The notes under the pieces were generated by a model. That model did not search any database and was not told where the DNA came from. It saw only the letters and a list, made by a program, of their open reading frames with translations. 64,000 nt of DNA from Acidobacteriota bacterium (GTDB lineage Bacteria > Acidobacteriota > Polarisedimenticolia > J045). Position numbers and translations under genes: made by a program. Of the stretch, positions 18,787 through 56,118 are shown one piece after another (position 1 is the first letter of the stretch; every line of letters starts with the position of its first letter). The stretch is from contig JAUZRX010000063.1 in assembly GCA_030949985.1 (NCBI GenBank), forward strand, positions 6,855 through 70,854. The letters run 5' to 3'.

Positions 18787-19600
18787 CTAGGAAAGCATCA
18801 GCAGGCCCAAATACCAGCGGATCAGCGGGTTGCCCCAGAATGCGGTGATCGCGGCGGCGGGGGCCAGGAAACAGCCGAAGGGAAGCTGGCGGGTCATGCC
18901 CCAGCGCCCCGACAGGAGATAGGGCAGGCTGAGCAGCGTGCCCACGATGGATGCCAGGAAGACCGTCACCACCACACCGCCGATTCCCAGGAAGGCCCCC
19001 ACCCCGAGCATCATCTTCAGGTCGCCTCCTCCCATGGCGTCACGGGCGAAGAGCATCTGCCAAACCATGGCCAGGGTGAAGAACAGGCCGTAACCCAGGA
19101 CCGCTCCTGCCGCCCCGGAAGCGAGCCGCGAGACCATGGACCCCTGCCCGAGAAAACCGGGAGCCAGGTCGAGCAGAGTGTTCCACGGCGCGAGAGCGAT
19201 GCCGATGGCGGCCGTCGGCAGGGTCACCTTGTCGGGAAGAAGCTGGTGGTCGTAGTCCGTGAAGAAAAGCACCACCAGCGCCGAGAGCAGCGGCAGCAGG
19301 ACGAAGCTGCGGGCCCCGCAGCCGAAGTGCAGGCCGGCGGCCAGCCACAACCCCGCGTTGAGGGCCTCGACCAGCGGATAGCGGGGAGAGATCGGCTCTT
19401 TGCAGTAGGCGCAGCGCCCCCCGAGCAGCAGCCAGGAGAGGATGGGCACGTTGTGCCAGGGGCGCAGGCGCCGCCGGCAGCGGGGGCAGGCCGACGGCGG
19501 CGTCACCACGCTCCGGCCCAGGGGCAGCCGATAGATGCAAACGTTGAGGAACGAACCCACCACCGCGCCGACCACCGCCAGCGCCACCAGGACTTCCACT
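18787..19600 (-). CDS. pilD: Prepilin peptidase PilD (A24A)
   Basis: GTG start (VEVLVALAVVGAVVGSFLNVCIYRLP). Zn-binding CPRC…CAYC pair. Polytopic C-domain with catalytic D motifs (…FFTDYDHQLLPD…GGGDLKMM…). Confidence 0.85.
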
Positions 19601-19619
19601 TGCAGCAGTCGGGCCGGGC

Positions 19620-20468
19620 TCACCGCCCCCCCCCCTCCACGACGCCGCCTTTCGGAGAGTCCACGGTGCAGGCATCGGGATCGAAGCTCAAGGGCCGGCC
19701 CGACGCTGCGCGCGGCAGCGCGGACAGCAGACCGCTGTGCAACAACTCCTCGAGTCTCCGCGGGCAACGCCCATGGCGTTGCCGGAAGGCAGTCAGCGCC
19801 CGACGCGTATCCCGCACCGCGATCCGAGTCCGGGTCTGTTCGAGCCACATGGCGACCACCTGGGCCGTCTTCTCGTCGGGGGGATCCTCCAGGATGCGCT
19901 GATACTCGGCCAGCGCGTCTTCCAGGCTGCCCGCCTTCTCGAGCATTCTCGCAGCGAGGCGGGTCAGCTGCGGGGGAGCCCCCGGAGCGCCGGACGCTCT
20001 TCTCCAGTAGTCCCGGGCCCGGAGGTAACGCCGGTCGTTGTAGGCCTCCCAGCCGGCCCAGTAGGCGAGCTCCCAATTGTCCGGCATCCGCTCGAGTCCC
20101 AGGTCGAGCAGCTCGAGAGCCATATCCGTGTTGCGGGCCTCGAGGGACATGATCATCGCTCCCACCAGGTAGACCTCGACGTAGCGAGGATCGAGTTCGG
20201 TGATGGCTCCCGCAAAGATCTCCCGCAGATACTCGAAGCGGGAGTCGTCGTCGTAGTTCGAGTAGTACTGGATCGACCAGATGTAGAGCAGGTCGGCCAG
20301 GGTCTCCTCGTGCCCCAGGGACAGCGCGCGCAGATAGGGCCCCTGGGGCAGGTAGAGCAGCGAGGCCTGGGGGGAGGCCTGCCGGTGGCCTTCGAGCCAC
20401 GCGCGTCCCTGCGCCATGCCCGCCGCCAGCATCGCCGCCAGCACCAGCCACGGCAACCAACGCCGCAT
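19620..20468 (-). CDS. Secreted helical-repeat accessory protein (PilG-position protein of a PilGHI-like module)
   Basis: ATG at 20468 overlaps the permease stop (ATGA). Signal peptide MRRWLPWLVLAAMLAAGMAQG. Helical repeats (…YIWSIQYYSNYDDDSRFEYLREIFAGAITELDP…). Confidence 0.6.
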   Translation of the reverse strand: MRRWLPWLVLAAMLAAGMAQGRAWLEGHRQASPQASLLYLPQGPYLRALSLGHEETLADLLYIWSIQYYSNYDDDSRFEYLREIFAGAITELDPRYVEVYLVGAMIMSLEARNTDMALELLDLGLERMPDNWELAYWAGWEAYNDRRYLRARDYWRRASGAPGAPPQLTRLAARMLEKAGSLEDALAEYQRILEDPPDEKTAQVVAMWLEQTRTRIAVRDTRRALTAFRQRHGRCPRRLEELLHSGLLSALPRAASGRPLSFDPDACTVDSPKGGVVEGGGR

Positions 20469-21235
20469 CAGACCAGGTCCCGTCGGCGGAAGGCCAGCGC
20501 GGCGACCAGCAGGAGCATGCCGGCCCAGGCCAGTTCGTAGATCGTGGCCCACGCGATGCGATCGAAACCCACCGGCACACCATGGACGACAAATGCCCGG
20601 ATGTCGCCGAATTCCAGGTCCGGCAGCACCAGGTAGAGCCCGTGCACCAGCTTGCGGGCCCAGGTGCCCGCCGGCAGTTTCTGCTCGAGCAGGGTCAGCG
20701 CCCAGCACAGATGGCCGACGACGTAGATCGCCGAGGTGAACAGGGCCGAGAAGATCGGCGTCGAAAAGGACGAGAAGAACACCGCCGCCGCGGTGATGAA
20801 CATCAACTCGACCCAGAGCATGAAGATCGCCGCCAGCAGCGAGTGAGTGTAGGCCCCACGCCACAAGGTCATGCCCACCAGCAGCCATCCGAGGGCCGCG
20901 GTGTTGATGGAGATCGTCGCCGCCAGGCCGAGATACTTGCCGAAGATGTACTCCCAGCGGGCCACGGGCGCCGAGAGCGTGACCTGTACGGTACGTCGTT
21001 CCATCTCCCGGAAGAGGATACCCACGCCCACGAAGAGGGCGACCAGCAGGCCCAGCACGCTGATCGCCGACAGACCCAGATCTTTGATGATCTTCGCGTC
21101 GTCCCCCACGGTCATCATCGACAGCACTCGGGAGAAAAGCATCAGGGCCGCGGCAAAGACCAGCAGCAGGTAGAGCACGCGGTGCCGGATGGCTTCGGCC
21201 AGGGTCGAGTGGGCGATGGCCAGAATCCTGCTCAC
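20468..21235 (-). CDS. ABC-2-type transporter permease (PilI-like)
   Basis: 255 aa, six predicted TM helices. Overlaps the ATPase gene by 4 nt. Confidence 0.8.
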   Translation of the reverse strand: MSRILAIAHSTLAEAIRHRVLYLLLVFAAALMLFSRVLSMMTVGDDAKIIKDLGLSAISVLGLLVALFVGVGILFREMERRTVQVTLSAPVARWEYIFGKYLGLAATISINTAALGWLLVGMTLWRGAYTHSLLAAIFMLWVELMFITAAAVFFSSFSTPIFSALFTSAIYVVGHLCWALTLLEQKLPAGTWARKLVHGLYLVLPDLEFGDIRAFVVHGVPVGFDRIAWATIYELAWAGMLLLVAALAFRRRDLV

Positions 21236-22185
21236 GATGCATCCCCCGCTTCCGCGCCCTGCAGGGTGCGCAAGAAGAGATCTTCGAGAGTCTCCCGCTG
21301 GGGAGTCAATGACAGCAGCGTTCCACCACCGGCCTGGACGGCGGCGACGATCTCGGGGGCCCGGGCCTCCGCCGGCAGGCGCCAGAGGCGCTCGTCGCCC
21401 CGTTGGGCGATCAGCTCACCCCCGGCGAGTGCGCCGCCGCCGAGCACCTCCACTTCCCAGCGCAACACGCGACGCTCGCGCTCGAGGCGGCCGAGATCCC
21501 GCACGGCGAGCAGTTTCCCGCCCTTGAGAATCGCCACACGATCACAGAGCATCTCGGCGTCGGCGAGCACGTGGGATGCGAAGAGCACCGTCACGCCCTC
21601 TTCCCGCAGGCCGAGGATCAGATCCCGGAACTCCCTGCGGCCGATGGGGTCCAACCCGCTCATCGGCTCATCGAGAATCACGAAGCGGGGGTTGCCGATC
21701 AGCGCCCGGGCCATCCCGGCACGCTGCACCATGCCCTTGGAATACTTGCGCAGAGGTCGGTCCATCGCCGCCGCCAGGCCTACCCGCTCGAGCCACTCGC
21801 CTGCGCGACGACGCCGATCCGTCCTCTCGATACCGTGCAGGCGACCGGCGAATTCCACCAGCTCCCGCCCGGTCAGGTCGTCGGGAAAGTAGGGACTCTC
21901 GGGAAGGAAGCCGACTTCCTTCCGCGCGGCGGGCTCGCTGGCCCTGCGACCCATCAGCCGCACCTCGCCCCGATCCGGGAAGATCAGCCCCAGCGCCAGC
22001 TTGATGGTCGTCGTCTTCCCCGCCCCGTTGGGACCGAGCAGACCGAGGATCTCCCCTGGCCGTACCGCCAGGTCGAGCCCGTCGAGGGAGAGCAGAGGGC
22101 GCTGCCAGAAGTGCGTGCGATAAGACTTGGAGACGCCCTCGTAGACGAGGGGCGCCCCGGCTTGTGTCGGGCTGCAAGTGGCCAT
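21232..22185 (-). CDS. ABC transporter ATP-binding protein (PilH-like)
   Basis: Walker A GPNGAGKTTT, signature YSKGMVQRAGMA, Walker B FVILDEPMSGLD. Confidence 0.85.
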   Translation of the reverse strand: MATCSPTQAGAPLVYEGVSKSYRTHFWQRPLLSLDGLDLAVRPGEILGLLGPNGAGKTTTIKLALGLIFPDRGEVRLMGRRASEPAARKEVGFLPESPYFPDDLTGRELVEFAGRLHGIERTDRRRRAGEWLERVGLAAAMDRPLRKYSKGMVQRAGMARALIGNPRFVILDEPMSGLDPIGRREFRDLILGLREEGVTVLFASHVLADAEMLCDRVAILKGGKLLAVRDLGRLERERRVLRWEVEVLGGGALAGGELIAQRGDERLWRLPAEARAPEIVAAVQAGGGTLLSLTPQRETLEDLFLRTLQGAEAGDAS

Positions 22186-22249: not shown

Positions 22250-25200
22250 TCAGGCTGGAACCAGCCAGCGAGAGAGCACGGCTTCGACCTGGCCCTGGTT
22301 GATCGGTTTGGCCAGATAGTCGTCCATACCCGCCGCCAGGCACTTCTCCCGGTCACCCTCCATGGCGTTGGCGGTCAGGGCGATCACCGGAATCCGCCCC
22401 CTCTCCCCGGGAAGTTGCCGGATCTTCTCGGTGGCTGCGAAACCGTCCATGCCGGGCATCTGGCAGTCCATGAAGACCAGCGCGAAGTCTTCCCGCCTGA
22501 TGATCTCCAGCGATTCCTCTCCCCCCGAGGCGCACACCACCCGGCAACCGAGGCGGGTGAGCAGCTTCTCGGCGACGCGGAGGTTGATCTTGTTGTCATC
22601 GACCACCAGCACCTTGGCGGCCTGCCAGTCCGCCGGACGGGCCACCGGGGTCTTCGGTGCCGGCACTCTCCTCTCTTCGTGCGGCTTGATGCCGGTCAGC
22701 AGCTTGCGCAGCAGGCGTGCCGGGTGGACCGGCTTGGAGATCCGTTCGCAGGTTCCCGCCCGCTCGCAGACCATGCGCGCTGGATCCGCACCCAGGGGAA
22801 GCAGGAAGAGAACCCGAACCTCCCGCAGGGATGGATGGGCGTGCACGGCAGCCGAGAAATGCAGCAGATCGTTCTGCGTCTCGCCCACGTCGACCAGCAA
22901 CCAGTCGCAACTCCCCTGGAAAGCGCTGATCTCCTCGGCGCCGGCGGCCTCGATCACCTGCGCTCCGAAGAGTTCGAGCTGTTCCCGCAGCAGCGCGCGC
23001 AGGCTGGCGTTCTTCCCGACCAGGAGGATCCGCCGGCTTTTGAGCGGCGGCTCACGGCCGACGGCCAGGTTGCCGCCGAGTTCCACGTGGAACCAGAAGC
23101 AGCTTCCCTCACCCTGACGGCTGGCGACACCGATGGCGCCTCCCATCTGCTCGACGAGATGGCGACAGATGGTCAGTCCCAGGCCCGTCCCTCCATAGCG
23201 ACGGGCGAAGGAACTGTCCTCCTGGGAAAAGGGTTCGAAGATCTTTTCCCGGGCCGCGCTCTCGATACCGATTCCCGAATCCTCGACTTCGAATCGAACC
23301 CGGATCCGCCCGGGCTGCCCGGCGTCGCCGGCCGAGACACGAATCGTCACCTGTCCCCGCTCGGTGAACTTGATCGCGTTGCCCACCAGGTTGGTCAGCA
23401 CCTGGCGCACGCGGTGGGGATCTCCAACGACCGATTCGGGCACATCGCTGGTCACCAGGTAACCCAGCTCCAGGCCCTTTTTCGCGGCACGAGCCGCCAT
23501 CAACGCCGCCACGGAGGCGACCATCTCGGACAGGTCGAACTCGATCTCTTCGAGGCCGATCCGGCCGGCCTCGATCTTCGACAGGTCGAGCACATCGTTG
23601 ATGATCGCCAGCAGTGCCTTGCCGGAGCTGTGGATGATCTCGGCATACTCGGCCTGCTCGCTGCTGAGTTCGGTCCTCAGCAGCAGCTCTGTCATACCCA
23701 GTACACCATTCATCGGCGTGCGGATCTCGTGGCTCATGGTAGCCAGGAAGGCGGACTTCGCCTCCGCCGCCTGCCGGGCGGCGGCCAGGGCCTCCTGCAG
23801 CGCCTGGTTGGCCCGGTTGAGTTCCCGCTGGTGGGCTTCGAGATCGCGGGTCCGCTCCCGCACCTTCTCTTCCAGATCCCGGTTCTGGCGCTCGATACTG
23901 CGGATCTGGTAGCGGAAGGCGCCGTACACCATCGCGCCCACCAGGAACGCGGCCATCGTGTAAAACCACCAGGTTCGCCAGTAAGGCGTCCTGATACGGA
24001 AGCCGATCCGGGCGGGCACGGGGGAAGTCACCCCATCCGCGTTGGTCGCCTGGACCAGGAAGGTGTATTCACCGTAGGGCAGGTTGGAGTAGGTGGCGCT
24101 GGTGCGGGAGGTCGGAGCCATCCAATCCTTGTCGAAGCCCTCGAGCTTGTATCGATAGCGCACCTTGGTCGGCGCCGTGGTGGAGATGCCGATGAAGTCG
24201 AAAGTCAGGTGGTTCTGGTTGTACCGCAGCTCGAGGCCATCGGTGAAGTCGATCGGCTCGAGGAAGATCTGGACTCCCGTGATATGCACCTTGGGCGGAA
24301 CCATGTTGCGCCGGTCGGCACGGCGGTTGTAGCGCACGGCGCCGTCGATCGTACCCAGCCAGATATAGCCCCGATCATCCTTGTAGACGGCGTGGACGTT
24401 GGTCTCCAGGCCCGCGAACCCCTCGTCCTTTCCGAAATGAGTGAAGGCCCCGGGCACGCCGTCCCACTTGTACAGACCGTTGTTGGTGCCCACCAGCACG
24501 CGGTCGTCGTCCGTACAGGCCACGAGGTAGACATTCTCCCGGCTGACACGACTCCCCTCGGAGACGTTGACGAAGCGGCCGCCGCTGAAGTAGTAGACGC
24601 CCCCGTCGTCCGTTCCGATCCACAACCGCCCCCGCGAATCCTCGTCGATGGAGTTGAGGGACAGGTGCCCGAGCCCGCGCTCCCGGCCGTAGAAGACGAA
24701 GCGTCCCATGCGGCCGCCGGTTGCAGGCAGGTAGCGGGCGAGCCCCATATCCGAAGTCGTCAACCAGATCCGATTCTCCCGGTCGACGAAGACGTCGTAG
24801 ACGGAAGTGTCGGTCTTGCCCTCCCGCAGGCGGAAGAGATCCAGCTTCCCCTGCGCGAGATCCGCCCCGGGCGCTTTCGGCATCCGGTAGCGGGCCACGC
24901 CGTGCCCCAGCATGCCGAACCACAAGCTCCCGTCAGGCCCCGCCGTCAACCCGAGCAGACGATGGGTCGGCAACCCGTCATCGACGCCCAGGTAGTCCAC
25001 CTCGCCGCTGGCCGGATCGTAGCGGGCCAGGCCCCCTCGATCGATGGTGAACCAGACCTGGCCGGCATCGTCCACGTGAACGCCCCGTACGCTCAGTGCC
25101 GGCAGGCCGGCACTCGCCGCCAGTACGAGATCGGGAGGACCCACATGGTCGGGATCGGGATAGGGCACGTGGATCAGGCCGCCCTGGGTACCAAACCAGA

Positions 25201-26305
25201 GGTCCCCCTGCCGGTCCTGGGTCGCCTCCCAGATCACGGACTGGAGCGGATCCTCCCCCTGGAGGAGGACCGTGAAAGGACTCGGGCGGTAGAGGGAGGC
25301 ACCCCGCCCGTCCGTTCCGAGCCAGACATTCCCTTCGCGATCCAGCATCAGCGCGCGGAAGCGCGTGAAACTGAGGCCATCATCGATGCCATAGCTCTGC
25401 AGGACCCGGATCCGGTGCCCCGTCGGGTCGGGCGCAACGCGCAGGACTCCCCCCCCGAAACTGGCCAGCCACAGGACTTCACCCGTGACACCGGCAACCG
25501 GCAGGATCTGCTCGATGGCATACATCGGCAGAGGTTGATCGGGCTCGAGAGGCGAGTCCAGGGAAGCACAGTCCCTGTCCGTGGCCGGACAGGCGTAAAG
25601 GTCGCCGTTCTCCGCACCGAACCAGAGATTGCCGGCTCTGTCGATCGCTGCCGTGCGAAAGGCGACTTCGGCGGCACCCCCGATCTTGCGGAAAGGCCCC
25701 TCCACGGATACGGCCCCGCGGGCATCGGCTCGCGCCCTGTAGAGTCCGCGGTCGGTGGCCAGCCACAGGTAGCCCCGGCCAAAGACCACGCCGAAGACCT
25801 TGTCCGGCGGGAGGTGCAGCGGATCGACCCGCCGCAGCCAGCCCTCACCGTCGAAGCGCTGGAGCCCGTTGCCTTCGGTAGCCAGCCAAAGGTTGCCGGC
25901 GGCGTCCTCGGCCAGGGCGTGCACCTCGCCGGGGCTTCCCTTCTCGGGCGGGGGGAAGACGGAAAAACCGTTCCCGTCCCAACGGCTGAGTCCGCCGGCG
26001 GCGTGAGCCAACCAGACTCGGCCCCCGCGATCGACGAACGCCGCAGTGATACGGTTGTCGAGCAGGCCATCCCGGGTCGTGAACGTTCTGAAGTGCAGGC
26101 CGTCGAAGCGCGACAGACCGTACTGCGTGCCCAGCCAGATGTAGCCGTCCCGGTCCTGGACCATGGCCTCGACCTGGGACTGGCTCAGGCCATCTTCCAC
26201 CGTGAAATGGCGAAAAACGGCCTCCTCCGCCACGGATGCGAGGCCGGGCAGAGACAGGAAAACGACGAGAGCCCCCAAGGGGCCCAGTGGCCGGAGGCGT
26301 TTCAA
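22250..26305 (-). CDS. Hybrid sensor histidine kinase with periplasmic two-component-regulator beta-propeller sensor
   Basis: TTG start, signal peptide, about 750 aa of propeller repeats (…GYIWLGT…GLSRFDG…) and a Y_Y_Y region. TM, HisKA ([17 protein letters not shown]), HATPase_c, then C-terminal receiver ([19 protein letters not shown]…[12 protein letters not shown]). Confidence 0.85.
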
Positions 26306-26546: not shown

Positions 26547-27731
26547 TCAGCGCTCCGGTTCACCCGCCGGAATCCCCGCCTGGCGGGCCAGGGTGAGATA
26601 GAGGCTTTCCTGGCGGCGAACCATGGTATCGATATCCCACGCCTCGACCCGCCGGCGGGCCCGACGGCCCATGGCCCGCGCCCGCCGGGGATCCGCCAGC
26701 AGGGCGGTCACCCCCCGGGCCAACCGCTCCACGTCACCGGCCTCCGCCAGAAAGCCCGTCTCGCCCTCTTCGACGGCCTCGGGGCTGCCGTCCACCGCCG
26801 TCACCACCACGGGCCGTCCCGCCGCCATCGCCTCCGGGATCACCCTCGGCAGCCCTTCGTGCCGGGAGGTGAGCACCAGCACGTCGATGGCCGCGAGAAC
26901 CTGCTCGGGATCCCGGCGCCAGCCCAGCAGGTGGAAACGCCCCTCAAGGCCCCGCGAGCCGACCTCGGCCTCCACCGCGGCCCGCAACTCGCCATCGCCG
27001 GCCAGCAGGAAGTGGGCCCCGGGTACCTCCCGCCTGACCCGCTCGGCGACCAGCACGTAGTCCAGCGGCGCCTTCTGGGGTTTGAGACAGGCGATCATGC
27101 CGGCCAGTGGAGCCTCGGCGGGCAGGCCCAGAGCCTGGCGCGCCCGGCGCCGGATCGTCTCATCCTCGGCGACCGTCTCGAAGCGATCGATCTCGATTCC
27201 GGAGTAGATCACCTCGAAGGCCTCGGCGGCGGCGATCTTGCGACGCTGCCCTTCGAGAGCGTTGGCCCGGGACACCGCCACGAGCTGGGTGCTCAGTTGT
27301 GCGGCGAATCTCTCGAGGGAAACGAAAATCCTCTGGCCCAGGATCGACTGGAGGGGCGTAAAACCCCACCCGTGCACGGTGTGCACGATGATGGGAACCC
27401 CGGCCAGAACCGCCGCCAGGCGCCCGAGAATCCCCGCCTTGGACGAATGGGTGTGGACGATCTGCGGTGCCAGCCGCTGCAGGCGACGGCGCAAGTCGGC
27501 CAGGGCCAGCAGGTCGCGCCCCGGTGCCACGGGGCGGGCCAGATGCGGGCAGGTCTCGAAGTGCAGCCCTTCGACGGCACGAGCCTGCGCTTCGAGCAGA
27601 CCGCCGGAGCCCGCCACCAGGATCGGCTCGAAGCGATCGCGGTCCAGGTGTGCGACGGTATAGAGAGTGTTCTGCTGGGCCCCACCCAGTTCGAGCTGGG
27701 TGATCAGGTGGGCCACCTTCAGCCGGCGCAT
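26547..27731 (-). CDS. Glycosyltransferase family 4 (GT-B)
   Basis: MRRLKVAHLITQLELGGAQQ N-domain; C-terminal EGLPRVIPEAMAAGRPVV (E-x7-E-like). ORF opens at TTG 27803; internal ATG preferred. Confidence 0.8.
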   Translation of the reverse strand: MRRLKVAHLITQLELGGAQQNTLYTVAHLDRDRFEPILVAGSGGLLEAQARAVEGLHFETCPHLARPVAPGRDLLALADLRRRLQRLAPQIVHTHSSKAGILGRLAAVLAGVPIIVHTVHGWGFTPLQSILGQRIFVSLERFAAQLSTQLVAVSRANALEGQRRKIAAAEAFEVIYSGIEIDRFETVAEDETIRRRARQALGLPAEAPLAGMIACLKPQKAPLDYVLVAERVRREVPGAHFLLAGDGELRAAVEAEVGSRGLEGRFHLLGWRRDPEQVLAAIDVLVLTSRHEGLPRVIPEAMAAGRPVVVTAVDGSPEAVEEGETGFLAEAGDVERLARGVTALLADPRRARAMGRRARRRVEAWDIDTMVRRQESLYLTLARQAGIPAGEPER

Positions 27732-48111: not shown

Positions 48112-49470
48112 CTATGCGCCCCGCGCTTTCCGGCGCGCGAGGAACTCCTCCATGAAACGGGTGGAGAAATCGCCGTCCCGGAACCCGGGTTCCGCCACCA
48201 GCTCCTTGAGCAGGGGCAGATTGGTCGTGATGCCTTCGATCACGAAGAAGTCCAGGGCCCGGCCAAGGCGGGAGAGCGCCTCGTCGCGATCCCGGCCGCG
48301 CACGATCAGCTTGGCGATCATCGAGTCGTAGTGCGGCGAGACCTGGTAGCCGGCGTAGGCCGCGGTATCGATGCGGACTCCAGGCCCCCCGGGAGGATGG
48401 AAGGTCGTAATCGGCCCGGGACAGGGGCGGAAGGTCCAGGGGTCCTCCGCCGTCACCCGGGCTTCGATGCTCCACCCGCGAGGCTCGAGATCGTCCTGGC
48501 CATAGCCCAGGGGCTCCCCGGCCGCGATACGGATCTGCTCCTTGAGAAGATCGAGACCGGCGACGTTCTCCGTCACGGGGTGTTCGACCTGGATCCGCGT
48601 GTTCATCTCCATGAAATAGAACGAACGGTCTTCGTCGAGCAGGAATTCCACGGTACCCGCGTTCTGGTATTCCACCGCCCGGGCGGCCTGCACCGCGGCA
48701 CGCCCCATCTCGACCCGCAGGGCCTCGTCGAGCGCCGGAGAGGGGGCCTCCTCGATCACCTTCTGGTGGCGCCGCTGGAGCGAGCACTCCCGTTCGAAGA
48801 GGTGAACGATATTCCCGTGCAGGTCCCCGAGGATCTGGAACTCGATGTGGCGCGGCCGGACGATGAATTTCTCGAGATACAGCTCTCCCGAACCGAAGCC
48901 GGCCAGAGCCTCGGACCGACAGGTCTCGACGGCGCTTTCCAGGTCCTCCGGCCTTTCGACGACCCGCATCCCCCGACCGCCGCCCCCGGCCGCCGCCTTG
49001 ACGATCACCGGATAGCCGATTGCCTTGGCCAGCTCCGCCGCCTCCTCGAAAGACTCGAGGGTTCCCCGGCTGCCGGGAATCACGGGCACACCGGCGCTGA
49101 TCATCGCGGCCCGTGCCGCGGCCTTGTCGCCCATCTGCCGAATCGTCGCCGCCTGGGGTCCGATGAAGCTCAGGCCGCACTCGGCGCAAATCTCGGCGAA
49201 GTGCGGATTCTCGGCGAGAAAGCCATAGCCGGGGTGGATCGCATCGGCACCGGTGATCTCGGCAGCCGAGATGATGGCCCCGATGTTGAGGTAAGAGTCG
49301 GTCGACCGGGCAGGACCGATACACACGTCCTCGTCGGCGAAACGGACGTGGAGCGAATCCTGGTCGGCGTCGCTGTGCACCGCCACGGTGCGAATGCCCA
49401 GTTCCTTGCAGGCCCAAATGATCCGCAGCGCAATCTCGCCGCGGTTGGCGATGAGTATCTTCTCGAACAT
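48112..49470 (-). CDS. accC: Acetyl-CoA carboxylase biotin carboxylase subunit
   Basis: [17 protein letters not shown]…, ATP-grasp, …[14 protein letters not shown]…. 452 aa. Confidence 0.9.
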
Positions 49471-49479: not shown

Positions 49480-49947
<468 letters not shown>

Positions 49948-50057
49948 CTCTTCCTCCGCTTTCTCCCTCCACCCGATTCCCGTCGGGTGGCAAGGCCAGG
50001 AAAAAGGCACCCGGTGTCAGGGTGCCGCGGGGATTGTGGCCGAGCGATTCGAGCGGG

Positions 50058-50471
50058 TCAACCCGGGCCTGAGGCTGCGGCGGGCCCGAGACGGTCGGCG
50101 AGGCGACCGGCGAGGACCCGGCCCGCCAGCCTCATACGTCCCAGATAGGGTTCCGGGCCCGCATCGAGAACCAGCACCAGCCCCACCGAGGGGACCCGGC
50201 GCAGCACGGCGATCCCGCCGCTACCGGTGACGATCACCTCCTCGCTGTCACCGATCCGGGCCGCGCGCAGAAGACCGGCCGCCGCCGCCATCCCTCCCAG
50301 GGCCTCGGCGCCCAGCTCTTCCAGGTCGCCGTCCAGGGCGGGATCGAAGCAGGCTCCGTCGACGAGTACGCCGTCCAGGTCGACCAGCACGGCACGGCGA
50401 ACGCCCGGGCACAGGCGGGCGGCGTCAGCCAGCAGCGAAGCCAGCTCCCCCCCTGTCATCGTCGTCACCAT
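50058..50471 (-). CDS. Roadblock/LC7-domain protein (MglB-like)
   Basis: 137 aa. …LVDLDGVLVDGACFD…SEEVIVTGSGGIAVLRRVPSVGLVLVLDA… alpha-beta-beta-alpha-beta roadblock fold pattern. ATG at 50471. Confidence 0.65.
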   Translation of the reverse strand: MVTTMTGGELASLLADAARLCPGVRRAVLVDLDGVLVDGACFDPALDGDLEELGAEALGGMAAAAGLLRAARIGDSEEVIVTGSGGIAVLRRVPSVGLVLVLDAGPEPYLGRMRLAGRVLAGRLADRLGPAAASGPG

Positions 50472-50489: not shown

Positions 50490-51044
50490 TCACTGGGTGC
50501 CGCAGCTCGTCGCCGTCTCCACCGGCACCTGCCCACGAGCCGTCATCGGTTCGCCGCTGGCATCCTCGCCGCGGAAGACCAGGTCGATCCTCCCGCGCTC
50601 ACCGAGACTGAAGAACCCGGCCGCGATATCCGTGGCCAGCACCGTGGTCAGCTCCTGGCTCGCCGTGCCCCCGGCAGGGACGGTGATGGTCACCGATTCG
50701 CTGCGGTCGGGCGGCGCGCTCCCATCGAGGATGTAGTTGATGTCGACCGACGAAAAGATCACGTCGTTCCAGGCACCGCCGGCCTGCCCCCGCAGACGTG
50801 AGTCGAAGTTGATGGTCTGCGTCACGGAAGAATAGACCGTGGTTTCCTTGGTCCCGTCGCCATCCAGATCGACCAGCTCGCCGTCCACGTCGACGCAGGC
50901 AGTGAGCGGATTGACGCTGGATACGGTCACGACGTTCTCCGACACGCCCGGATCGTCCGTCGCGTTGTTGCAGGCCACCGCCGTCAGCACGACCACCAGG
51001 CCCAAAGCCGCCAGCGGCGACCAGACTCTCAGCTTTTCCATCAT
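50490..51044 (-). CDS. Small beta-rich lipoprotein encoded at the 3' end of the pilMNOPQ operon
   Basis: Frame opens at TTG 51065, which overlaps the pilQ stop. ATG at 51044 with GGAG RBS gives MMEKLRVWSPLAALGLVVVLTAVAC|NNATDD (signal peptide plus lipobox-like AVAC). Mature part is Thr/Ser/Val-rich. Confidence 0.6.
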   Translation of the reverse strand: MMEKLRVWSPLAALGLVVVLTAVACNNATDDPGVSENVVTVSSVNPLTACVDVDGELVDLDGDGTKETTVYSSVTQTINFDSRLRGQAGGAWNDVIFSSVDINYILDGSAPPDRSESVTITVPAGGTASQELTTVLATDIAAGFFSLGERGRIDLVFRGEDASGEPMTARGQVPVETATSCGTQ

Positions 51045-51061: not shown

Positions 51062-53338
51062 TCAAGAGGCCTTGATGATCCGCGGCGTGATGAAAATCAG
51101 CAGCTCGCGGTTGCGCGTCTGAATATTCTTCGAGCGGAACAGCCAGCCGAGTCCCGGCAGCTTGCGGAACCAGGGAACGCCCGTTTCACTCCGCCCCTCG
51201 TTGACCGTGAAGATACCGCCGATCACGGTCGTTCCGCCGTCTCCGATCAGGACCTTGGTCGTCGCCCGTTGGGTGTTGATGGCAGGCACTTCGCCAACGG
51301 TGTTGACGAAGTCCGGCGAGTTGTTCTCGACCTCGATCTCCAGCACCACTGTTCCCTCGGCCGTGATCTGGGGCGTGACCTCGAGCCGCAGCGAAGCCGA
51401 GACGAAGCGCACGTCGATCTCCGTGGCCGTGGTGCTGACCACCGGGATGCGCACACCCTGCTCGATCTCCGCCATCTCGTTGTTCTGAGTGGCGATCTTC
51501 GGGCTCGACAGCCGTCGGGCGTAGCCTTCGGTCTCGAGAGCGTCGAGAGTGATGTCCAGCGTCACCGAATCCAGCACGTTGCCGAAGGAGAACCCGAGGG
51601 CCGAGGCCGCGGGGTTACGTGCCAGGTTCAGGTCGAAGGCCCCGGCGGCCCGATGTGGAAACTGAAGGTTGGTCTGCGTTCCATTCCCCGGATCCGCCGC
51701 AGCGAAGAGACCCCAGCGAACGCCCAGATCTTTGACGAAGTCCCGGGAGACCTCGACGATGCGGGCCTCGATCATGACCTGGGGGGTCTCGGCGTCGAGG
51801 GTCGTGAGCAGCTTGTCGATCGCCTCGACACGGGTGGGAATGTCACGAATGATCAGGGTATTGGTCCGCTCATCGACGATCACCCGGCCCTTGCGGCTGA
51901 GAATGCCGTCCCGCACCACGGCCTGGACCTCCTTGGCCTTGGCGTAGGAGAGGGTCCGCGTGATGGTGACCGGCGGAACTTCAAGCTCCTTGGCCTCGAA
52001 CAGGGCCTTGCGCGCCGCCGATTCCTGGGCGAGCTTGGAGATCGGCGCAATCCGGATCACGTTGCCCTCGAGCACCATGTCCAGGCCGTTGTTCTTGAGA
52101 ATCAGGTCGAGGGCCTGGTCCCAGGGGACATCGTCGACAACGATGGTCACGACCCCCGACACGGCGGGATCCAGGACGAAGTTGAGCCCGGAGATGTCAT
52201 GGAAGAGGCTGAAGACCTGCTTGATGTCGGCGTCGATGAGCTGCAGCGAGACTTTGCGCCCGCTGTAGACCCTGCGTGCGTCCTCGATGGTCTTGGCCTC
52301 GGTATCCGGCAGGGGCACGACCTCGGCCCGACCGGTTTCGACCGGCAACGAGACGGTGTCGTGGCGCGGGGCCTCGACCCGGGTCGCCAGGCCCGCGGCC
52401 TCCTCCACCACCTGGGCGATCTCGGGCTCCTGCCAGGCCGTAGCCGGCGGCGGGGCGGCGGGAAGGCCGGAAGTCGGAGCCGGTTTGGCCACCGGCTCGG
52501 TCAGGGATGGGGTCGCCGGTGATTCCGGCACCGTCCCGGTGGCCGGCTCCGGAACTTCCATCGCCTCGCCGCCCCCGGGGGCCGGCGCGGCAGGCTCGGC
52601 GACAGGAGACGCAGGAGCCTCCAGGCGGACTTCCCGGGGAGCGGGTACCGTCTCCGCTGCGATCGCCATTTCCACCGGGGTTCCCGGCTCCGCATCACTC
52701 GCGGTCGCGTACATCGCCGGATCGGGTTCCGCCCGCGGCGGCTCCGGCACCACGGGCGCCGGCGCCACGGCGCTCGCCAGCGACGCCTCCGGCTCCCCGG
52801 AAGACCCGGGAGCCTCCGAGGGCTGGGCCTGAGTCATCGGCAGAGGGTCGCCCCCCTGGGGACTCACGCGAATCAACAGGTGCGTACCTTCGCGGACGAC
52901 ACTCCACTCCATCGGCTCGAGCAGGTCGAGGACCACCCTCGCCATGGGCGTGGGATCTTCCTGGTACTGGCCCACGCGGACCCGCACCAGGGTGTCACTT
53001 CCGACCTCGAGGCGCTGGCCGGCCTGGGGAGCCACCACGCCGGGCAGATCGAAGACGATCCGATCCGGTCCCGTCAGCGTGAAGACCTGGTAGGCCAGGG
53101 CGCCGTCGGCCTCGAGCCACACCTCGTACATGCCGCCCGAAGTCGGTTCGCTCACCGTCACTTCGCTCAGGCGAGCCGCTGGTGCCAGGCCTTCCGGCAC
53201 CGGTTCCGATGCCAGCAGAGGCGGGCGATCGTCGTAGGCGTCACCGCTCATGCCCATCACGGCCGGTGCCGCAAAGGCGATGGCGATCGTCAATGCCAGG
53301 AACCAACTGGTATGGCCCCGGAGGTAGCCCCTCCTCAT
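51062..53338 (-). CDS. pilQ: Type IV pilus secretin PilQ
   Basis: Signal peptide, AMIN domain, about 180-aa Pro/Ala/Glu-rich linker, N0/N1 domains, secretin core (…VLIGDGGTTVIGGIFTVNEG…ETGVPWFRKLPGLGWLFRSKNIQTRNRELLIFITPRII). 758 aa. Confidence 0.9.
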   Translation of the reverse strand: MRRGYLRGHTSWFLALTIAIAFAAPAVMGMSGDAYDDRPPLLASEPVPEGLAPAARLSEVTVSEPTSGGMYEVWLEADGALAYQVFTLTGPDRIVFDLPGVVAPQAGQRLEVGSDTLVRVRVGQYQEDPTPMARVVLDLLEPMEWSVVREGTHLLIRVSPQGGDPLPMTQAQPSEAPGSSGEPEASLASAVAPAPVVPEPPRAEPDPAMYATASDAEPGTPVEMAIAAETVPAPREVRLEAPASPVAEPAAPAPGGGEAMEVPEPATGTVPESPATPSLTEPVAKPAPTSGLPAAPPPATAWQEPEIAQVVEEAAGLATRVEAPRHDTVSLPVETGRAEVVPLPDTEAKTIEDARRVYSGRKVSLQLIDADIKQVFSLFHDISGLNFVLDPAVSGVVTIVVDDVPWDQALDLILKNNGLDMVLEGNVIRIAPISKLAQESAARKALFEAKELEVPPVTITRTLSYAKAKEVQAVVRDGILSRKGRVIVDERTNTLIIRDIPTRVEAIDKLLTTLDAETPQVMIEARIVEVSRDFVKDLGVRWGLFAAADPGNGTQTNLQFPHRAAGAFDLNLARNPAASALGFSFGNVLDSVTLDITLDALETEGYARRLSSPKIATQNNEMAEIEQGVRIPVVSTTATEIDVRFVSASLRLEVTPQITAEGTVVLEIEVENNSPDFVNTVGEVPAINTQRATTKVLIGDGGTTVIGGIFTVNEGRSETGVPWFRKLPGLGWLFRSKNIQTRNRELLIFITPRIIKAS

Positions 53339-53859
53339 GCTTCATCCTCCTCGACGAGATCCTCGTCCGACGGGTAGAGCCTCTTGATCACGTCCCGATA
53401 TGGCTTGATCCGGCGCGGATCGTCCACATTCTGGCGAAAGACCACGACACCCCGGTCGGGATCGATGGAAAGCACGCGGCCGTCGTAGACCACGTCCCCG
53501 ACGCGCAGCGTGTAGCCGCGATTGTCACTGCCGCTGAACAGGGCCGCCGGATAGCCCCTGGCATCGATCACGATGCCCTTGAGGTCGATCTCCGAGACCA
53601 GCATGCCGGCGATGCCCTTGGGCCGCTTACCCGTCGCAGCCGTCGGCGTCGCGCGGACCAGTGGTTCGAAGGGATCGCGACGGCCGGCGGGATCGTAGGT
53701 GAAGTGCCGTCCGGTAATCACGGACTCGCTGTCCCGCTCGATGCGATCCATCATCGCGTCGTGGCCCTCCCCGGGAGCCGTGGATGGCTGGCCGAAGGCG
53801 GAGACCACGGCCAGAGCGGCCAGTCCAAAAGTCACCAGCGCTGTTGCCCGGCGGATCAT
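53335..53859 (-). CDS. pilP: Pilus assembly lipoprotein PilP
   Basis: ATG at 53859 overlaps the pilO stop. Signal peptide/lipobox region, then …RDPFEPL… and a beta-domain. Stop overlaps the pilQ start (ATGA). Confidence 0.75.
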   Translation of the reverse strand: MIRRATALVTFGLAALAVVSAFGQPSTAPGEGHDAMMDRIERDSESVITGRHFTYDPAGRRDPFEPLVRATPTAATGKRPKGIAGMLVSEIDLKGIVIDARGYPAALFSGSDNRGYTLRVGDVVYDGRVLSIDPDRGVVVFRQNVDDPRRIKPYRDVIKRLYPSDEDLVEEDEA

Positions 53860-54452
53860 CACGGAGCACCTCCTTCGGCAGCCGCGGCATCCTCGCGGAA
53901 GATGAAGGTCTTGGCGACGAACGAGGCCGCGATGGTCGCGGTTCGTACCGAGCGGTTGGTATTGGGGGTGATGCGCACGTTCTCGACGTTGATGATGCGC
54001 GCGTGCTTGCTGACCCGGTCGAAGAACATGCCCAGCTGGTGGTAGGTGCCCACCACGTTCATCCGAATCGGCTGCTCCTTGAGCAGCTCCTGTTCCTGCA
54101 GCGGCTGGGGATTGAACAAACGCAGATCCAGGTTGGCCTGATCGGCGAGGGACTTGATCCACTTGAGCAGATCACCCAGTTCGGGTTCGGTGGGCAGGAT
54201 CGCCTTGAGGTCGGCAAGCTTGAGTTCCAGCGCGGCGATATCACGCTCCAACTCGTCGAGCTTGGCCAGTGCCAGCTTGCCCTGGCGGATCTTGGCCTGC
54301 GTGTCCTCGATCCTGGTGGTCAGGTCCTCGATCTTCGCCTTCTTGGCCGACAGATTGGCCGGGGCCATGGAGTAGCTCAGCCAGATCAAGACGCCGCCGA
54401 CGACGGCAGCCAGGATCAGGTGACCCCACCAGGGCATGTTCTTGAAGTCCAT
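53859..54452 (-). CDS. pilO: Pilus assembly protein PilO
   Basis: MDFKNMPWWGHLILAAVVGGVLIWLSY TM, then a coiled coil, then …VVGTYHQLGMFFDRV…. Starts 2 nt after the pilN stop. Confidence 0.8.
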   Translation of the reverse strand: MDFKNMPWWGHLILAAVVGGVLIWLSYSMAPANLSAKKAKIEDLTTRIEDTQAKIRQGKLALAKLDELERDIAALELKLADLKAILPTEPELGDLLKWIKSLADQANLDLRLFNPQPLQEQELLKEQPIRMNVVGTYHQLGMFFDRVSKHARIINVENVRITPNTNRSVRTATIAASFVAKTFIFREDAAAAEGGAP

Positions 54453-54454
54453 CG

Positions 54455-55057
54455 TCAGCTCCTCGCGCCGGCGTCGTCCGACGATGCGTCCTCGCCGCCG
54501 CTCGCACCCGTGGGGGGGGTAAACCTGCACGACAGCACGAAACTCACGCCCTCGGGAACGCGCTGGGTGGTGCCCATGGTCACGTCGGAGAAGAAGGAGG
54601 AGTCGCGCAGGTTGTTGTAGAAGTTGCTGACAGCATTGAACGTAGTAGCCTTGCCGCGCACCCGGATACCGCCGTCCCGCTCCTCGAGCCCCTCGAGCCA
54701 GAGGAACTCGGGAAGCTGGCGGCTGATCTGGTCGAGCAGGTGGACGGGTACGCGCTGACGACGCTTGAGTTCGGAGATCAGCGCGACACGCTGCTCGAGA
54801 GCGTCCTTCTTGGCCTGCCGCTCGTCGACAGTCCTCAGGGCCTGCTCGACTTCCTTGAGGTCCTCTTCAGCCTGGGCCAGATCCTGCTTGAGGGTCTCGA
54901 TCCGGTTGCCGAGGGTGTACCAGCTGACCCCGATGTAGCCGAAGGTCAGCAGCATCACCACGATCCACACCACACCGATGGTCGAAATCCCGCCGAAGCT
55001 GATCTTCGGGCCTTCCTTGGTCGTCTTGTCTTGCTCGAGCAGGTTGATCCGAATCAT
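54455..55057 (-). CDS. pilN: Pilus assembly protein PilN
   Basis: MIRINLL conserved N-terminus, single TM, coiled coil. 200 aa. Overlaps the pilM stop (ATGA). Confidence 0.85.
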   Translation of the reverse strand: MIRINLLEQDKTTKEGPKISFGGISTIGVVWIVVMLLTFGYIGVSWYTLGNRIETLKQDLAQAEEDLKEVEQALRTVDERQAKKDALEQRVALISELKRRQRVPVHLLDQISRQLPEFLWLEGLEERDGGIRVRGKATTFNAVSNFYNNLRDSSFFSDVTMGTTQRVPEGVSFVLSCRFTPPTGASGGEDASSDDAGARS

Positions 55058-56118
55058 CGGTCACCCACCTTTCGCAGGGCGAGGCCCACGGCCACCGCGG
55101 TATCGGGTCCGGCATCCCCAAATTGGCTTTCCAGGCGCGCCGGCAGCCGGACCTGGCGGAACGGGTCGAGTTGGTGCACAGCCGCACCGAAACGCTCACC
55201 CAGGGCCTGCTGAAGTCCCGGAAGGCGGGAGCCGCCCCCGGTGAGGTAAATCGCGTCCACCGGGGCTTCGCTGCCGGCGAAAGCCTTGACGAAGTCCACG
55301 GTGCGCTGAATCTCGTTACCCAGTTCCTCGTTGACGGAGCCCAGAATCGCCGACACCTGCTCGCCGGGAACGCCCTCCACCGCCTCGCCCCGCTTGGCCG
55401 CCTCGGCCTGCTCCCGCGAGAGGCTCAGTTCCCGCTGAATCGTGTCGGAGTACTGGTTGCCCCCGATGGAGATGTCTCTCCAGAACACCGAGGTCCCGTC
55501 CTGCAGGATCGAAACGCTGGTCACGGAAGCTCCGATGTCGATCAGGGCCGCCGACGGGGGCATCTCGTCGCGGTAGTTGACCTCGAAGCAGTTGAGGGCG
55601 GCGAAGGTGCCCACGTCCACCGTCGCCGGCTCCAGGCCGGCCTGACCGATGACGGAAGTGTAGTCGTCGATCTTGTCCTTGCGGGCCGCGACGAGAATCA
55701 CGTCCATGTTCCCCTCGCCGGCCAGGGAGGATCCCTCGAGCACGTGGTAGTCCAGGGAGACCTCCTGCATGTTGAAGGGGATGTACTGCTCGGCCTCCCA
55801 GCGGATCTGTTCGGCGAGTTCCTGCTCACTCATGGTGGGCAGGTTGATCCGCCGGATGATCACCGACGGCCCGCTGAGAGCCGTGGCGACGCGCCGGTTG
55901 CGGATCTTGCCATAGGTCCAGATCCGCCTGAGAGTCTCCACCACCAGGCCGGCATCCATGATGGTGCCGTCCACGATGGCTTCCTGGGGCAAGGGCTCGG
56001 TGGCGATGGACTGGACCTCCCAGCCCTTGTTTCTCCCGAGATCCTTGAGCTCGACCACCTTGATGGAGCTGTCGCCGATGTCGAGCCCCACCAGGTCCTT
56101 CGACCGCCCAAAGAGCAT
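55054..56118 (-). CDS. pilM: Pilus assembly protein PilM (actin-like ATPase fold)
   Basis: GGAGG RBS. …VGLDIGDSSIKVVEL… and …DIGASVTSVSIL…YLTGGGSRLPGL…, an FtsA/PilM fold. 354 aa. Confidence 0.9.
   Translation of the reverse strand: MLFGRSKDLVGLDIGDSSIKVVELKDLGRNKGWEVQSIATEPLPQEAIVDGTIMDAGLVVETLRRIWTYGKIRNRRVATALSGPSVIIRRINLPTMSEQELAEQIRWEAEQYIPFNMQEVSLDYHVLEGSSLAGEGNMDVILVAARKDKIDDYTSVIGQAGLEPATVDVGTFAALNCFEVNYRDEMPPSAALIDIGASVTSVSILQDGTSVFWRDISIGGNQYSDTIQRELSLSREQAEAAKRGEAVEGVPGEQVSAILGSVNEELGNEIQRTVDFVKAFAGSEAPVDAIYLTGGGSRLPGLQQALGERFGAAVHQLDPFRQVRLPARLESQFGDAGPDTAVAVGLALRKVGDR

Follow-up and report, generated by a model that had tools for sequence, protein, structure and literature searches.

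A type IVa pilus cluster with pilin-associated glycan genes in an Acidobacteriota genome

The window analysed here, a stretch of 64,000 nucleotides (nt) from contig JAUZRX010000063.1, carries at positions 18787 to 56118 a consolidated type IVa pilus (T4aP) cluster with a full machinery set and two pilins. A series of glycan genes lies between the pilins and the tail of the cluster, which encodes an ATP-binding cassette (ABC) transporter, a TPR-like protein and PilD (Table 1). The G+C content of the window is about 68%, and as a result raw lists of open reading frames (ORFs) are crowded with spurious frames. Genes were called from third-position G+C and the calls were then confirmed by profile searches (Pfam, NCBIfam) and PDB searches. 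The span, the gene list and the minus-strand order given in a first-pass annotation were borne out, as 29 of 29 genes were found where they had been placed, including the complete T4aP machinery and, in the order described, the glycan genes between pilA and the ABC-pilD tail. Relatives were collected by a PilC scan using one genome per species, which gave 226 relatives; the best 80 form the set of related loci (L numbers), with PilC as the anchor, and synteny was traced with tblastn, every protein of the window serving as a query against the loci retrieved. L085 continues the contig of L006, L019 and L087 are counted together, L088 and L089 are the nearest relative (ENA and NCBI assemblies of one population), and CP070706 corresponds to L002, L081 and L086.

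The locus encodes PilB and a separate PilT, PilC, PilM, PilN, PilO and a probable PilP, an AMIN-bearing PilQ, PilD and class III prepilins, the combination by which a T4aP system is recognised. The globular part of PilA has as its best NCBIfam match the pseudopilin GspG of type II secretion systems (78 bits, below cutoff); a type II secretion identity was ruled out by the presence of PilT with AIRNLIRE, PilMNO and the AMIN-bearing secretin. PilP is assigned from position, conservation and a weak match (E 0.05), and the protein is 52-72% identical to proteins at the same position in relatives. The lipoprotein encoded after pilQ belongs to a clade-specific family of 12 members in which the lipobox Cys and two more Cys are invariant, and it is modelled as an Ig-like beta-sandwich (predicted local distance difference test score, pLDDT, 82.6); it is possibly secretin-associated. 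The Roadblock-like (Robl) gene that follows was found in the closest relatives only. A sequence search of PDB chains gave no match for the lipoprotein and nothing better than E 0.03 for the Robl protein. The next pair of genes, accB-accC, separates pilQ from pilB in over 20 loci of Acidobacteriota (L003, L005, L006, L008-L015, L017, L018, L020, L021, L023, L025, L030, L032, L039, L043, L046, L050 and L072). No minor pilin or PilY1-type tip adhesin was recognised within the 37 kb; candidate minor pilin/PilX_N genes follow pilD in the relative L087.

Upstream of pilA, and downstream of pilS-pilR, lies a sigma-54 promoter of perfect consensus, which is the sole match to TGGCAC-N5-TTGCW in the window. 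With the terminator after pilA, pilSR and this promoter make up the classical PilSR/sigma-54 arrangement. Across the clade (L005-L087) the N-terminal 50 residues of PilA are identical and a C-terminus of the form F-x-Q-W/Y-P-E/Q-G-x-Q-Q is conserved. An acceptor signature in PilA, either Ser/Thr-rich or C-terminal, that tracks the Wzy_C genes was looked for and abandoned; a variable Thr/Gly-rich loop and the Cys pattern fail to split the groups cleanly.

The first of the glycan genes encodes a GT-C protein that had no Pfam, NCBIfam or PDB sequence match. An AlphaFold model built on a 19-sequence alignment (pLDDT 90.4) has a confident GT-C fold, and the closest structure is the mycobacterial arabinofuranosyltransferase AftB. 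A PDD motif follows the first helix, with D34 invariant and D33 at least 90% conserved among the 19 sequences; the model and a transmembrane scan place both residues in the first extracytoplasmic loop. At the C-terminus, 110 residues are modelled as a small alpha/beta domain. The close family numbers 17 proteins, all from Acidobacteriota. A profile search reached 39,078 cluster representatives at E<=1e-3 (3,810 at 1e-30), and when ten members of this wide family were sampled, eight had no Pfam match at E 0.01, one had a marginal match to DUF6798 (E 0.009) and one matched PMT_2. The window protein belongs to a large unnamed GT-C family. One JGI member of the wide family is named arabinofuranosyltransferase.

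The second glycan gene encodes a 1241-residue protein with two Wzy_C stretches and a C-terminal TPR region. The two Wzy_C halves form an internal repeat (30% identity, E 4e-14). Because the N-terminal half best matches the first, and the C-terminal half the second, of two tandem genes in L011 and L014, the protein is regarded as a fusion of two Wzy_C-TPR paralogues. Both halves have a conserved His motif, HNSWL at 320 and HSDPL at 913, the His being assigned by motif only. Against PDB chains the protein gave TPR matches only, with none to the solved WaaL or PglL chains. It is a candidate O-oligosaccharyltransferase (O-OTase) or ligase, and O-OTases and WaaL ligases are not separable by sequence alone.

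Beyond the Wzy_C gene, ggt begins 1 nt past the stop of the fusion and has its own Shine-Dalgarno sequence. Enzymes of the GGT family, such as CapD, attach polymers. The HDOD gene on the opposite strand is broken: positions 2-80 and 93-195 of the HDOD profile are matched in different frames, the N-terminal half stopping at TGA 31654-31656 and the C-terminal half beginning at 31643. The frameshift points to a pseudogene or else to a fault in the assembly of this metagenome-assembled genome (MAG). A minus-strand ORF at 31213-31779, antisense to this gene and without a family match, was discarded as spurious. Further along, the flavin adenine dinucleotide (FAD) protein is a homologue of UDP-galactopyranose mutase (UGM) of the eukaryotic type. 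A phmmer search of the PDB matched the UGM chain 4dsg (E 2e-44, residues 5-429) and 3ute (E 2e-39); the match to bacterial-type Glf is marginal (E 1e-3) and that to an NCBIfam model of the PRK07208 type (E 3e-48) is below cutoff. The last gene before the ABC transporter encodes a hybrid sensor kinase. In the nearest relative the kinase is a single 1351-residue gene in L088 and is called as two ORFs (814 and 495 residues; L089 2597-6525), which is probably another frameshift.

In the tail of the cluster, neither the ABC ATPase nor the permease resembles canonical Wzt or Wzm. The TPR-like protein has 159 homologues, and all the named ones are from Acidobacteriota; the order permease-TPR-pilD was constant in every context examined. 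A PilF/Tgl-type pilotin was considered for the TPR-like protein and rejected, as there is no lipobox Cys and the TPR scores are marginal.

Table 1. Genes and features of the T4aP cluster, in minus-strand order (aa, amino acids; GT, glycosyltransferase; HexNAc, N-acetylhexosamine).
Feature	Position	Strand	Basis and remarks
pilM	55054..56118	-	Pfam PilM_2, E 1e-77
pilN	54455..55057	-	Pfam PilN, E 3e-16; ATGA overlap with pilM
pilO	53859..54452	-	Pfam PilO, E 1e-28; 2-nt gap from pilN
PilP-position protein	53335..53862	-	Pfam PilP, E 0.05 at best; signal peptide, no lipobox Cys
pilQ, secretin	51062..53338	-	AMIN, STN, Secretin_N, Secretin; ATGA overlap with pilP
Lipoprotein, clade-specific, Ig-like beta-sandwich	50490..51044	-	Predicted model
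Roadblock/LC7-like protein (weak)	50058..50471	-	Pfam Robl_LC7, E 1.5e-4, below cutoff; PDB 7f8m, E 0.03
accB	49480..50010 (start possibly TTG 49947)	-	Family search; preceded by terminator-like hairpin at 50026-50006
accC, biotin carboxylase	48112..49470	-	Family search
pilB, extension ATPase	46189..47928	-	MshEN and T2SSE (E 3e-140), Walker A, two CxxC
pilT, retraction ATPase	45034..46143	-	AIRNLIRE at residues 291-298, Walker A
pilC, platform protein	43816..45018	-	Two T2SSF domains
pilS, sensor kinase	42085..43740	-	6TM_PilS, PAS, HisKA, HATPase
pilR, sigma-54 activator	40661..42085	-	1-nt overlap (TGATG) with pilS
Sigma-54 promoter, perfect consensus TGGCACCGAGATTGCT	40517..40532	-	51 nt upstream of pilA ATG
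pilA, major pilin	40008..40466	-	Leader MRRNERG/FTLIE (slash, cleavage site); N_methyl, E 1e-10; GspG-like globular domain
Intrinsic terminator-like hairpin, strong	39960..39993	-	14-bp stem and T run, after pilA
Second pilin (pilin2)	39449..39922	-	19-residue leader; prepilin motif as in PilA
GT-C fold glycosyltransferase, 501 aa, polytopic	37787..39292	-	Predicted structure, closest to AftB
Double Wzy_C protein with C-terminal TPR, 1241 aa, candidate O-OTase/ligase	34065..37790	-	Wzy_C in two stretches, E 4e-26
ggt, gamma-glutamyltransferase	32351..34063	-	TIGR00066, 371.5 bits, above cutoff
HDOD gene, frameshifted near 31640-31656	31343..32212	+	HDOD profile in two frames
GT2 glycosyltransferase	30171..31172	-	Family searches
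WecA/MraY-family polyprenyl-phosphate HexNAc-1-P transferase (PGT)	29158..30174	-	PF00953, E 1e-32; TIGR02380 wecA, E 3e-25
UGM homologue, eukaryotic type (FAD protein)	27719..29044 (start 29044 or 29032)	-	phmmer against PDB
GT4-family (GT-B) glycosyltransferase	26547..27716	-	Family searches
Hybrid sensor kinase	22250..26305	-	Reg_prop, Y_Y_Y, HisKA, HATPase, REC
ABC transporter ATPase	21232..22185	-	DrrA/GldA/NodI-like models
ABC-2 permease	20468..21235	-	PF12679 (ABC2_membrane_2), E 1e-9; GTGA overlap with ATPase gene
Secreted TPR-like accessory protein	19620..20468	-	Acidobacteriota family
pilD, prepilin peptidase	18787..19623	-	A24_N_bact and Peptidase_A24; GGGD, two CxxC; GTGA overlap with TPR gene

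Many junctions between these genes are translationally coupled, as the first-pass annotation had said, but its list of 4-nt overlaps stands only in part. The overlaps at pilM/N, pilP/Q and GT-C/ligase (ATGA) and at ATPase/permease (GTGA) are real, and TPR/pilD (GTGA) is a further one. Those at pilO/P and GT2/PGT are ambiguous and may be 4 or 1 nt. The overlap is 1 nt only (TGATG) at pilS/R and permease/TPR, and one at pilQ/lipoprotein would need an unlikely TTG start, the NCBI call (184 residues) starting 17 nt past the pilQ stop. Gene calls in the relatives show these couplings again, and they are conserved in operons of this kind. Among overlaps in compact bacterial operons, those of 4 nt are the most frequent. 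The coupling represents operon packing and does not show stoichiometric control; the stoichiometric co-translation that had been proposed over-reads ordinary operon overlaps, and three of the overlaps named for it were wrong.

The comparison with relatives indicates that the source organism is an acidobacterium and not a myxobacterium. Almost all of the best 80 of the 226 PilC relatives are Acidobacteriota MAGs or isolates, and a handful carry other phylum labels. The top relative, with 98% PilC identity, is a short contig of the Acidobacteriota MAG JALTMS01, a MAG whose nucleotide sequence is about 80-85% identical to the window and collinear with it. Several other Acidobacteriota MAGs reach 76-88% PilC identity, the next best values being 88%, 81% and 80%, and many relatives fall within 65-81%; the isolate Mor1 (CP011806) has 69% and Polarisedimenticolia about 68%. 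Among the best 80, identity is 52-54% for two MAGs of Thermodesulfobacteriota and one of Deltaproteobacteria. The GT-C and lipoprotein sequences are identical to the NCBI proteins Q9Q40_12940 and Q9Q40_12995 of an Acidobacteriota MAG, and these locus tags are 11 genes apart, in agreement with the gene map of the window.

The machinery genes follow an order that is shared within the phylum. The series pilN-O-P-Q-lipoprotein-Robl-accB-accC-pilB-T-C-S-R-pilA-pilin2 is common to L005, L006, L009 and L023, and the same order without a detectable lipoprotein or Robl gene is found in L008, L010-L014, L017 and L025. The order MNOPQ-accBC-pilB is present in more than 15 acidobacterial loci. Since it recurs across these relatives, the position of pilMNOPQ ahead of pilB with accBC between them is the norm of the clade, and the earlier description of the gene order as rearranged relative to Myxococcus does not hold for a locus whose close relatives are Acidobacteriota.

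The glycan genes also keep their place. In L085 a Wzy_C gene (1258 residues) is followed by GT2, PGT, an amine-oxidase-type FAD protein, GT4, the ABC ATPase, the ABC-2 permease, TPR and PilD, with no ggt, HDOD, kinase or GT-C gene. The nearest relative (L088/L089) has GT2-PGT-FAD protein-GT4-hybrid kinase (1351 residues)-ABC-permease-TPR-PilD-Iso_dh, L082 has pilBTCSR, three pilins, RraA, GT-C, Wzy_C (1204 residues), GT2 and PGT, and the more distant L087 has pilS-pilR-pilA-PGT-FAD protein (UGM)-AsnB-GT4-ABC-permease-TPR-PilD. Pfam searches of the ORFs just after pilA found Wzy_C(+TPR) in L010, L024 and L030. Two tandem Wzy_C-TPR genes follow pilA in L011 and in Mor1 (L014), where a Wzx-type flippase comes next. 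In a search with a protein panel, a Wzy_C-like gene starts no more than 2 kb from the last pilin in 10 of the 15 loci with at least 2.5 kb of downstream sequence, and L082 adds one at 3 kb. The Wzy_C gene stands directly after the pilin in L005, L006, L010, L011, L014, L023, L024, L029 and L030; in the window the GT-C gene comes between them. The position of the glycan genes is kept across relatives whose PilC identity runs from 81% down to about 65%.

In CP070706 the cluster is broken up. A block of pilR fragment-pilin-pilin-GT-C-Wzy_C (1258 residues)-GT2-PGT-FAD protein (UGM)-GT4-ABC ATPase is 1.3 Mb away from pilT-C-S-pilR', and its distance to permease-TPR-pilD is 0.65 Mb. The three parts lie at 2.33, 3.60 and 2.95 Mb; pilR is split, with its N-terminal part after pilS at 2.33 Mb and a C-terminal fragment of 216 residues ahead of the pilins at 3.60 Mb. 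Upstream of pilT there is no pilB, and the ABC ATPase is apart from permease-TPR-pilD. This fragmentation is either a real rearrangement or a misassembly, and whichever the cause, the glycan genes stay with the pilins.

These comparisons show that the Wzy_C-TPR genes beside the pilins and the PGT-UGM-GT4 genes before ABC-permease-TPR-pilD are ancestral to the locus in this clade and are no recent insert. Three other genes are later, subclade-specific insertions. Only the window has ggt and HDOD between the ligase and GT2 genes, where L081, L082 and L085 have 0-38 bp; ggt is absent at this position in L005, L081, L082 and L085. The hybrid kinase stands between GT4 and the ABC ATPase in the window and the nearest relative (L088/L089) only and is absent from L081, L085 and L087. 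The window, L081 and L082 carry the GT-C gene, and L005, L006 and L023 lack it. The pair accBC, although conserved, is a separate unit and a housekeeping hitch-hiker in the pilus cluster. The single 14-kb glycan insert of the first-pass annotation is therefore replaced by an ancestral core (Wzy_C, PGT, UGM, GT4), a GT-C gene shared with some relatives and lineage-specific ggt/HDOD and kinase genes, and the distance, put at about 14 kb between pilA and the ABC genes, is about 17 kb from pilin2 to the ABC ATPase. That the linkage of glycan and pil genes is not incidental was upheld by synteny, because the relatives keep the glycan genes at the same place beside the pilins and not at unrelated loci.

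A further arrangement is seen in L024 (6859-11179), where about 4.5 kb between pilR and pilA encodes an 840-residue protein with a match to YfhO, a GT-C-type family, and a 636-residue protein. It is probably shared by L030, L038, L040, L041, L044 and L072. The arrangement belongs to Polarisedimenticolia-type relatives and is a different glycosyltransferase solution at the pilin locus.

Taken together, the locus is probably a clade-inherited T4aP cluster with a pilin-associated glycan module, whose likeliest function is O-glycosylation of the pilin. Adjacency suggests the pilin as the most likely target of the glycan. En bloc transfer is proposed because of the conserved adjacency, the precedents of pilA-tfpO and pilA-tfpW and the TPR region, which suggests a protein partner. 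The WecA-like PGT would prime the pathway by forming polyprenyl-PP-HexNAc, and GT2 and GT4 would extend the glycan with sugars that include galactofuranose (Galf) supplied by the UGM homologue. The lipid-linked glycan would then reach the periplasmic face, possibly via the adjacent ABC-2 transporter, which is put forward because there is no Wzx in the cluster. There the pilin-adjacent Wzy_C-TPR enzyme may move the glycan en bloc onto Ser/Thr of the pilin, like TfpO and PglL, and the AftB-like GT-C may add furanosyl residues from a polyprenyl-P donor, like TfpW.

Several observations weigh against this proposal. No Wzy_C gene lies beside pilA in L008, L012 and L019/L087, of which L012 and L087 keep PGT-UGM-GT4. 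PilA ends in ...QWPEGQQQ and pilin2 in ...APD, so that both are without the C-terminal Ser/Thr used by TfpO and TfpM (PMC9829042). For the GT-C donor, no polyprenyl-phosphate sugar synthase or D-arabinofuranose (D-Araf) pathway gene was identified, and family searches of the window found no DprE1/DprE2/UbiA-like D-Araf genes. A GT-C homologue of 54% identity stands alone, away from pil genes, in L083/L084. The best model for GT4 is an exopolysaccharide (EPS)-type transferase of the PEP-CTERM system. The role of the ABC transporter as a glycan exporter is speculative because the ATPase matches DrrA, GldA and NodI and not Wzt or KpsT.

Some of the same observations feed the strongest rival, which is a possible but clearly less likely explanation: the glycan genes, the ABC-2 transporter and the TPR protein would make and export a surface polysaccharide (O-antigen-like or EPS) that cooperates with the pilus, for instance by triggering retraction or by forming a matrix for anchoring, and stays unattached to the pilin, the Wzy_C proteins being ligases or polymerases. 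It is established that WecA, Glf, glycosyltransferases, an ABC-2 exporter and a WaaL-type ligase make up the parts list of an ABC-dependent galactan O-antigen; the PGT-UGM-GT4-ABC-permease-TPR core is kept in L087 and L012 with no Wzy_C gene adjacent, and GT4 has its best matches among EPS-type models. The ABC ATPase GSU1501 (xapD) of Geobacter sulfurreducens lies in a polysaccharide operon (PMC5585712, PMC8683041), and T4P function in Myxococcus xanthus depends on EPS (PMC9109919). Against a free polysaccharide, the Wzy_C-TPR genes abut the pilins specifically and travel with them in the fragmented CP070706, and the C-terminal TPR suggests a protein partner, as in TfpW. The ABC proteins have no Wzm/Wzt-type matches, and family searches of the cluster found no outer-membrane export component (Wza/OPX).

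A bolder version of the pilin glycosylation proposal, which we hold to be doubtful, would make it a clade-wide Acidobacteriota system built into the T4aP cluster, with pilin-adjacent Wzy_C-TPR enzymes, two of them fused in the window, and in some lineages GT-C, attaching a Galf glycan that PGT-UGM-GT4 would make and that would cross the inner membrane through the ABC-2 transporter at the position of PilH/PilI in M. xanthus. If it were true, the PilGHI-type transporter found in consolidated pil clusters, for long without an explanation, would have the task of exporting a lipid-linked glycan for the pilus.

It is very improbable that the linkage is incidental, with variable surface-glycan genes and housekeeping genes (accBC, ggt) piled up in a tolerant spot without any tie to the pilus. 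Hitch-hiking does occur here, clearly so for accB-accC, ggt, the frameshifted HDOD gene and the hybrid kinase, the content of the module is mosaic between relatives, and the G+C content is uneven, at about 74% over the GT-C/Wzy_C genes (34000-39300) and 62-65% over pilB-pilT-pilC (43800-48000). The clusters of Desulfuromonadales also have large inserts at the corresponding position (14 kb, 12 genes; PMC6060248). The glycan genes nevertheless hold their position over the whole range of PilC identity from 81% to about 65%, and after the apparent break-up in CP070706, and 4-nt coupled junctions bind GT-C to Wzy_C and TPR to pilD. Scarcely any credence is left for a rearranged Myxococcota or deltaproteobacterial pil locus, with MNOPQ moved ahead of pilB and a recently acquired single block of glycan and sensor genes about 14 kb long: the order B-T-C-S-R-A-[ABC]-D does resemble M. 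xanthus, and large single T4aP clusters are otherwise reported for Cystobacterineae, Bdellovibrionales and Desulfuromonadales (PMC6060248), but the close relatives are all Acidobacteriota, the deltaproteobacterial-type matches reach only 52-54% PilC identity, MNOPQ-accBC-pilB recurs in over 15 acidobacterial loci, and the glycan core is ancestral in a block of about 17 kb that came from several separate insertions.

The locus is flanked by housekeeping genes, an Iso_dh-family dehydrogenase gene on the pilD side and a ridA-like ORF, relA/spoT, secF, secD and yajC on the pilM side. The RidA/YjgF-like ORF, at about 56480-56930 (minus strand), has relA/spoT on one side and pilM on the other, so the space separating those two genes cannot count as 800 bp of intergenic DNA, and a sigma-70-like promoter match is found upstream of pilM at 56426-56399. 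Beyond pilD, collinearity with the nearest relative stops at about 17697, since a Macro-domain gene adjoins Iso_dh there instead. Two long ORFs of high third-position G+C, 12963-14933 (plus strand, 657 residues) and 15443-17713 (minus strand, 757 residues), occupy a stretch of 74% G+C and have no Pfam match. An Rfam scan of the window found only four tRNAs, clustered at its far end (689-1806, minus strand) and far from the locus, and no riboswitch or other RNA inside the pil cluster.

A search of a limited library of papers found none describing the organisation of a T4aP cluster in Acidobacteriota, and the closest known systems are from other phyla. The order in M. xanthus, which we take to be pilB-T-C-S-R-A-[ABC]-D, is collinear with the block in the window; pilMNOPQ presumably lies downstream of pilD there, and a second pair, pilS2R2, is presumably present. 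As in clusters of the M. xanthus type, one large cluster holds nearly all the core T4aP genes, pilB-T-C-S-R-A are contiguous, an ABC ATPase, a permease and an accessory protein lie between pilA and pilD, and pilA is under PilSR with a sigma-54 promoter. The window differs in its phylum, in having pilMNOPQ upstream of pilB with accBC between, in its one pilSR pair without pilS2R2, in the glycan module, the pilins and the ABC genes being 17 kb apart, and in its TPR-like accessory protein, whose named homologues are all from Acidobacteriota. It also has accC and not ribF beside pilB, ribF being the neighbour of pilB in M. xanthus-type clusters (PMC6060248). The same paper presents the single 17-gene cluster of M. 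xanthus DK1622 as an exception shared with Cystobacterineae, Bdellovibrionales and Desulfuromonadales, describes two genera of Desulfuromonadales, Geoalkalibacter and Geopsychrobacter, in which an insert of 14 kb with 12 genes separates pilD from pilH, and gives the function of PilGHI as untested. Such clusters are treated there as a peculiarity of some Myxococcota, Bdellovibrionales and Desulfuromonadales. That many and varied Acidobacteriota have the same B-T-C-S-R-A-[ABC]-D backbone bears on how the cluster originated and spread, and it offers a handle on the role of PilGHI-like transporters.

In Pseudomonas aeruginosa, both tfpO and tfpW directly follow pilA, and Wzy_C is present in every known O-OTase (PMC9829042; bioRxiv 10.1101/2020.04.19.049825). 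The window resembles the pilA-tfpO pair of P. aeruginosa group I and the pilin-tfpM pair of Moraxellaceae (PMC9829042) in having a gene for a Wzy_C membrane protein with a His motif downstream of a pilin. TfpO and TfpM have 420-470 residues and no TPR, whereas the window protein has 1241 residues with two fused Wzy_C regions and TPR, and relatives have Wzy_C-TPR proteins of 578-736 residues. The pilins of the window are also without C-terminal Ser/Thr, and genes for glycan synthesis are at the locus itself, in contrast to an enzyme that borrows O-antigen units. The prediction that follows is that the pili of Acidobacteriota would bear an O-linked glycan containing furanose, attached by Wzy_C-plus-TPR enzymes, tandem or fused, outside the four characterised O-OTase families.

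The GT-C protein can be compared, by its features, with TfpW of P. aeruginosa group IV, a GT-C D-arabinofuranosyl pilin transferase (bioRxiv 10.1101/2020.04.19.049825). Both are polytopic, with a DD motif in the first periplasmic loop, a gene just after the pilins and a mycobacterial arabinofuranosyltransferase as the nearest solved structure. TfpW has 646 residues with TPR, and the window GT-C has 501 with a small alpha/beta C-terminal domain; it has no DprE1/DprE2/UbiA-type D-Araf genes nearby, and it accompanies a Wzy_C enzyme and does not replace one.

The galactan of Klebsiella O2a and the arabinogalactan of mycobacteria use WecA, Glf, GlfT, Wzm/Wzt and AftA/AftB parts. The window likewise has the parts of an ABC-dependent Galf polymer system, with a WecA-like PGT, UGM, GT2 and GT4, an ABC-2 transporter, an AftB-like GT-C and a Wzy_C-type ligase; it differs in that its ABC transporter is of the DrrA/GldA type and not Wzt, its UGM is of the eukaryotic type and the context is a pilus cluster. 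In Geobacter the xap operon presumably lies just after pilA, between pilA and the rest of the pil cluster. The likeness to xap is one of gene content, ABC exporter and glycosyltransferase genes being in one operon, and GSU1501 (xapD) of G. sulfurreducens promotes the secretion of polysaccharide, the product being reported as extracellular polysaccharide (PMC5585712, PMC8683041). The pilin-adjacent Wzy_C-TPR gene sets the window apart, as none is reported in Geobacter.

Set beside these systems, the locus is an ordinary inherited pilus cluster for its clade that carries an undescribed variant of pilin-linked glycosylation genes, namely a fused Wzy_C-TPR protein, an AftB-like GT-C and a eukaryotic-type UGM. 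Each ingredient has precedents, and the value of the locus is as a lead for acidobacterial surface biology more than as a surprise.

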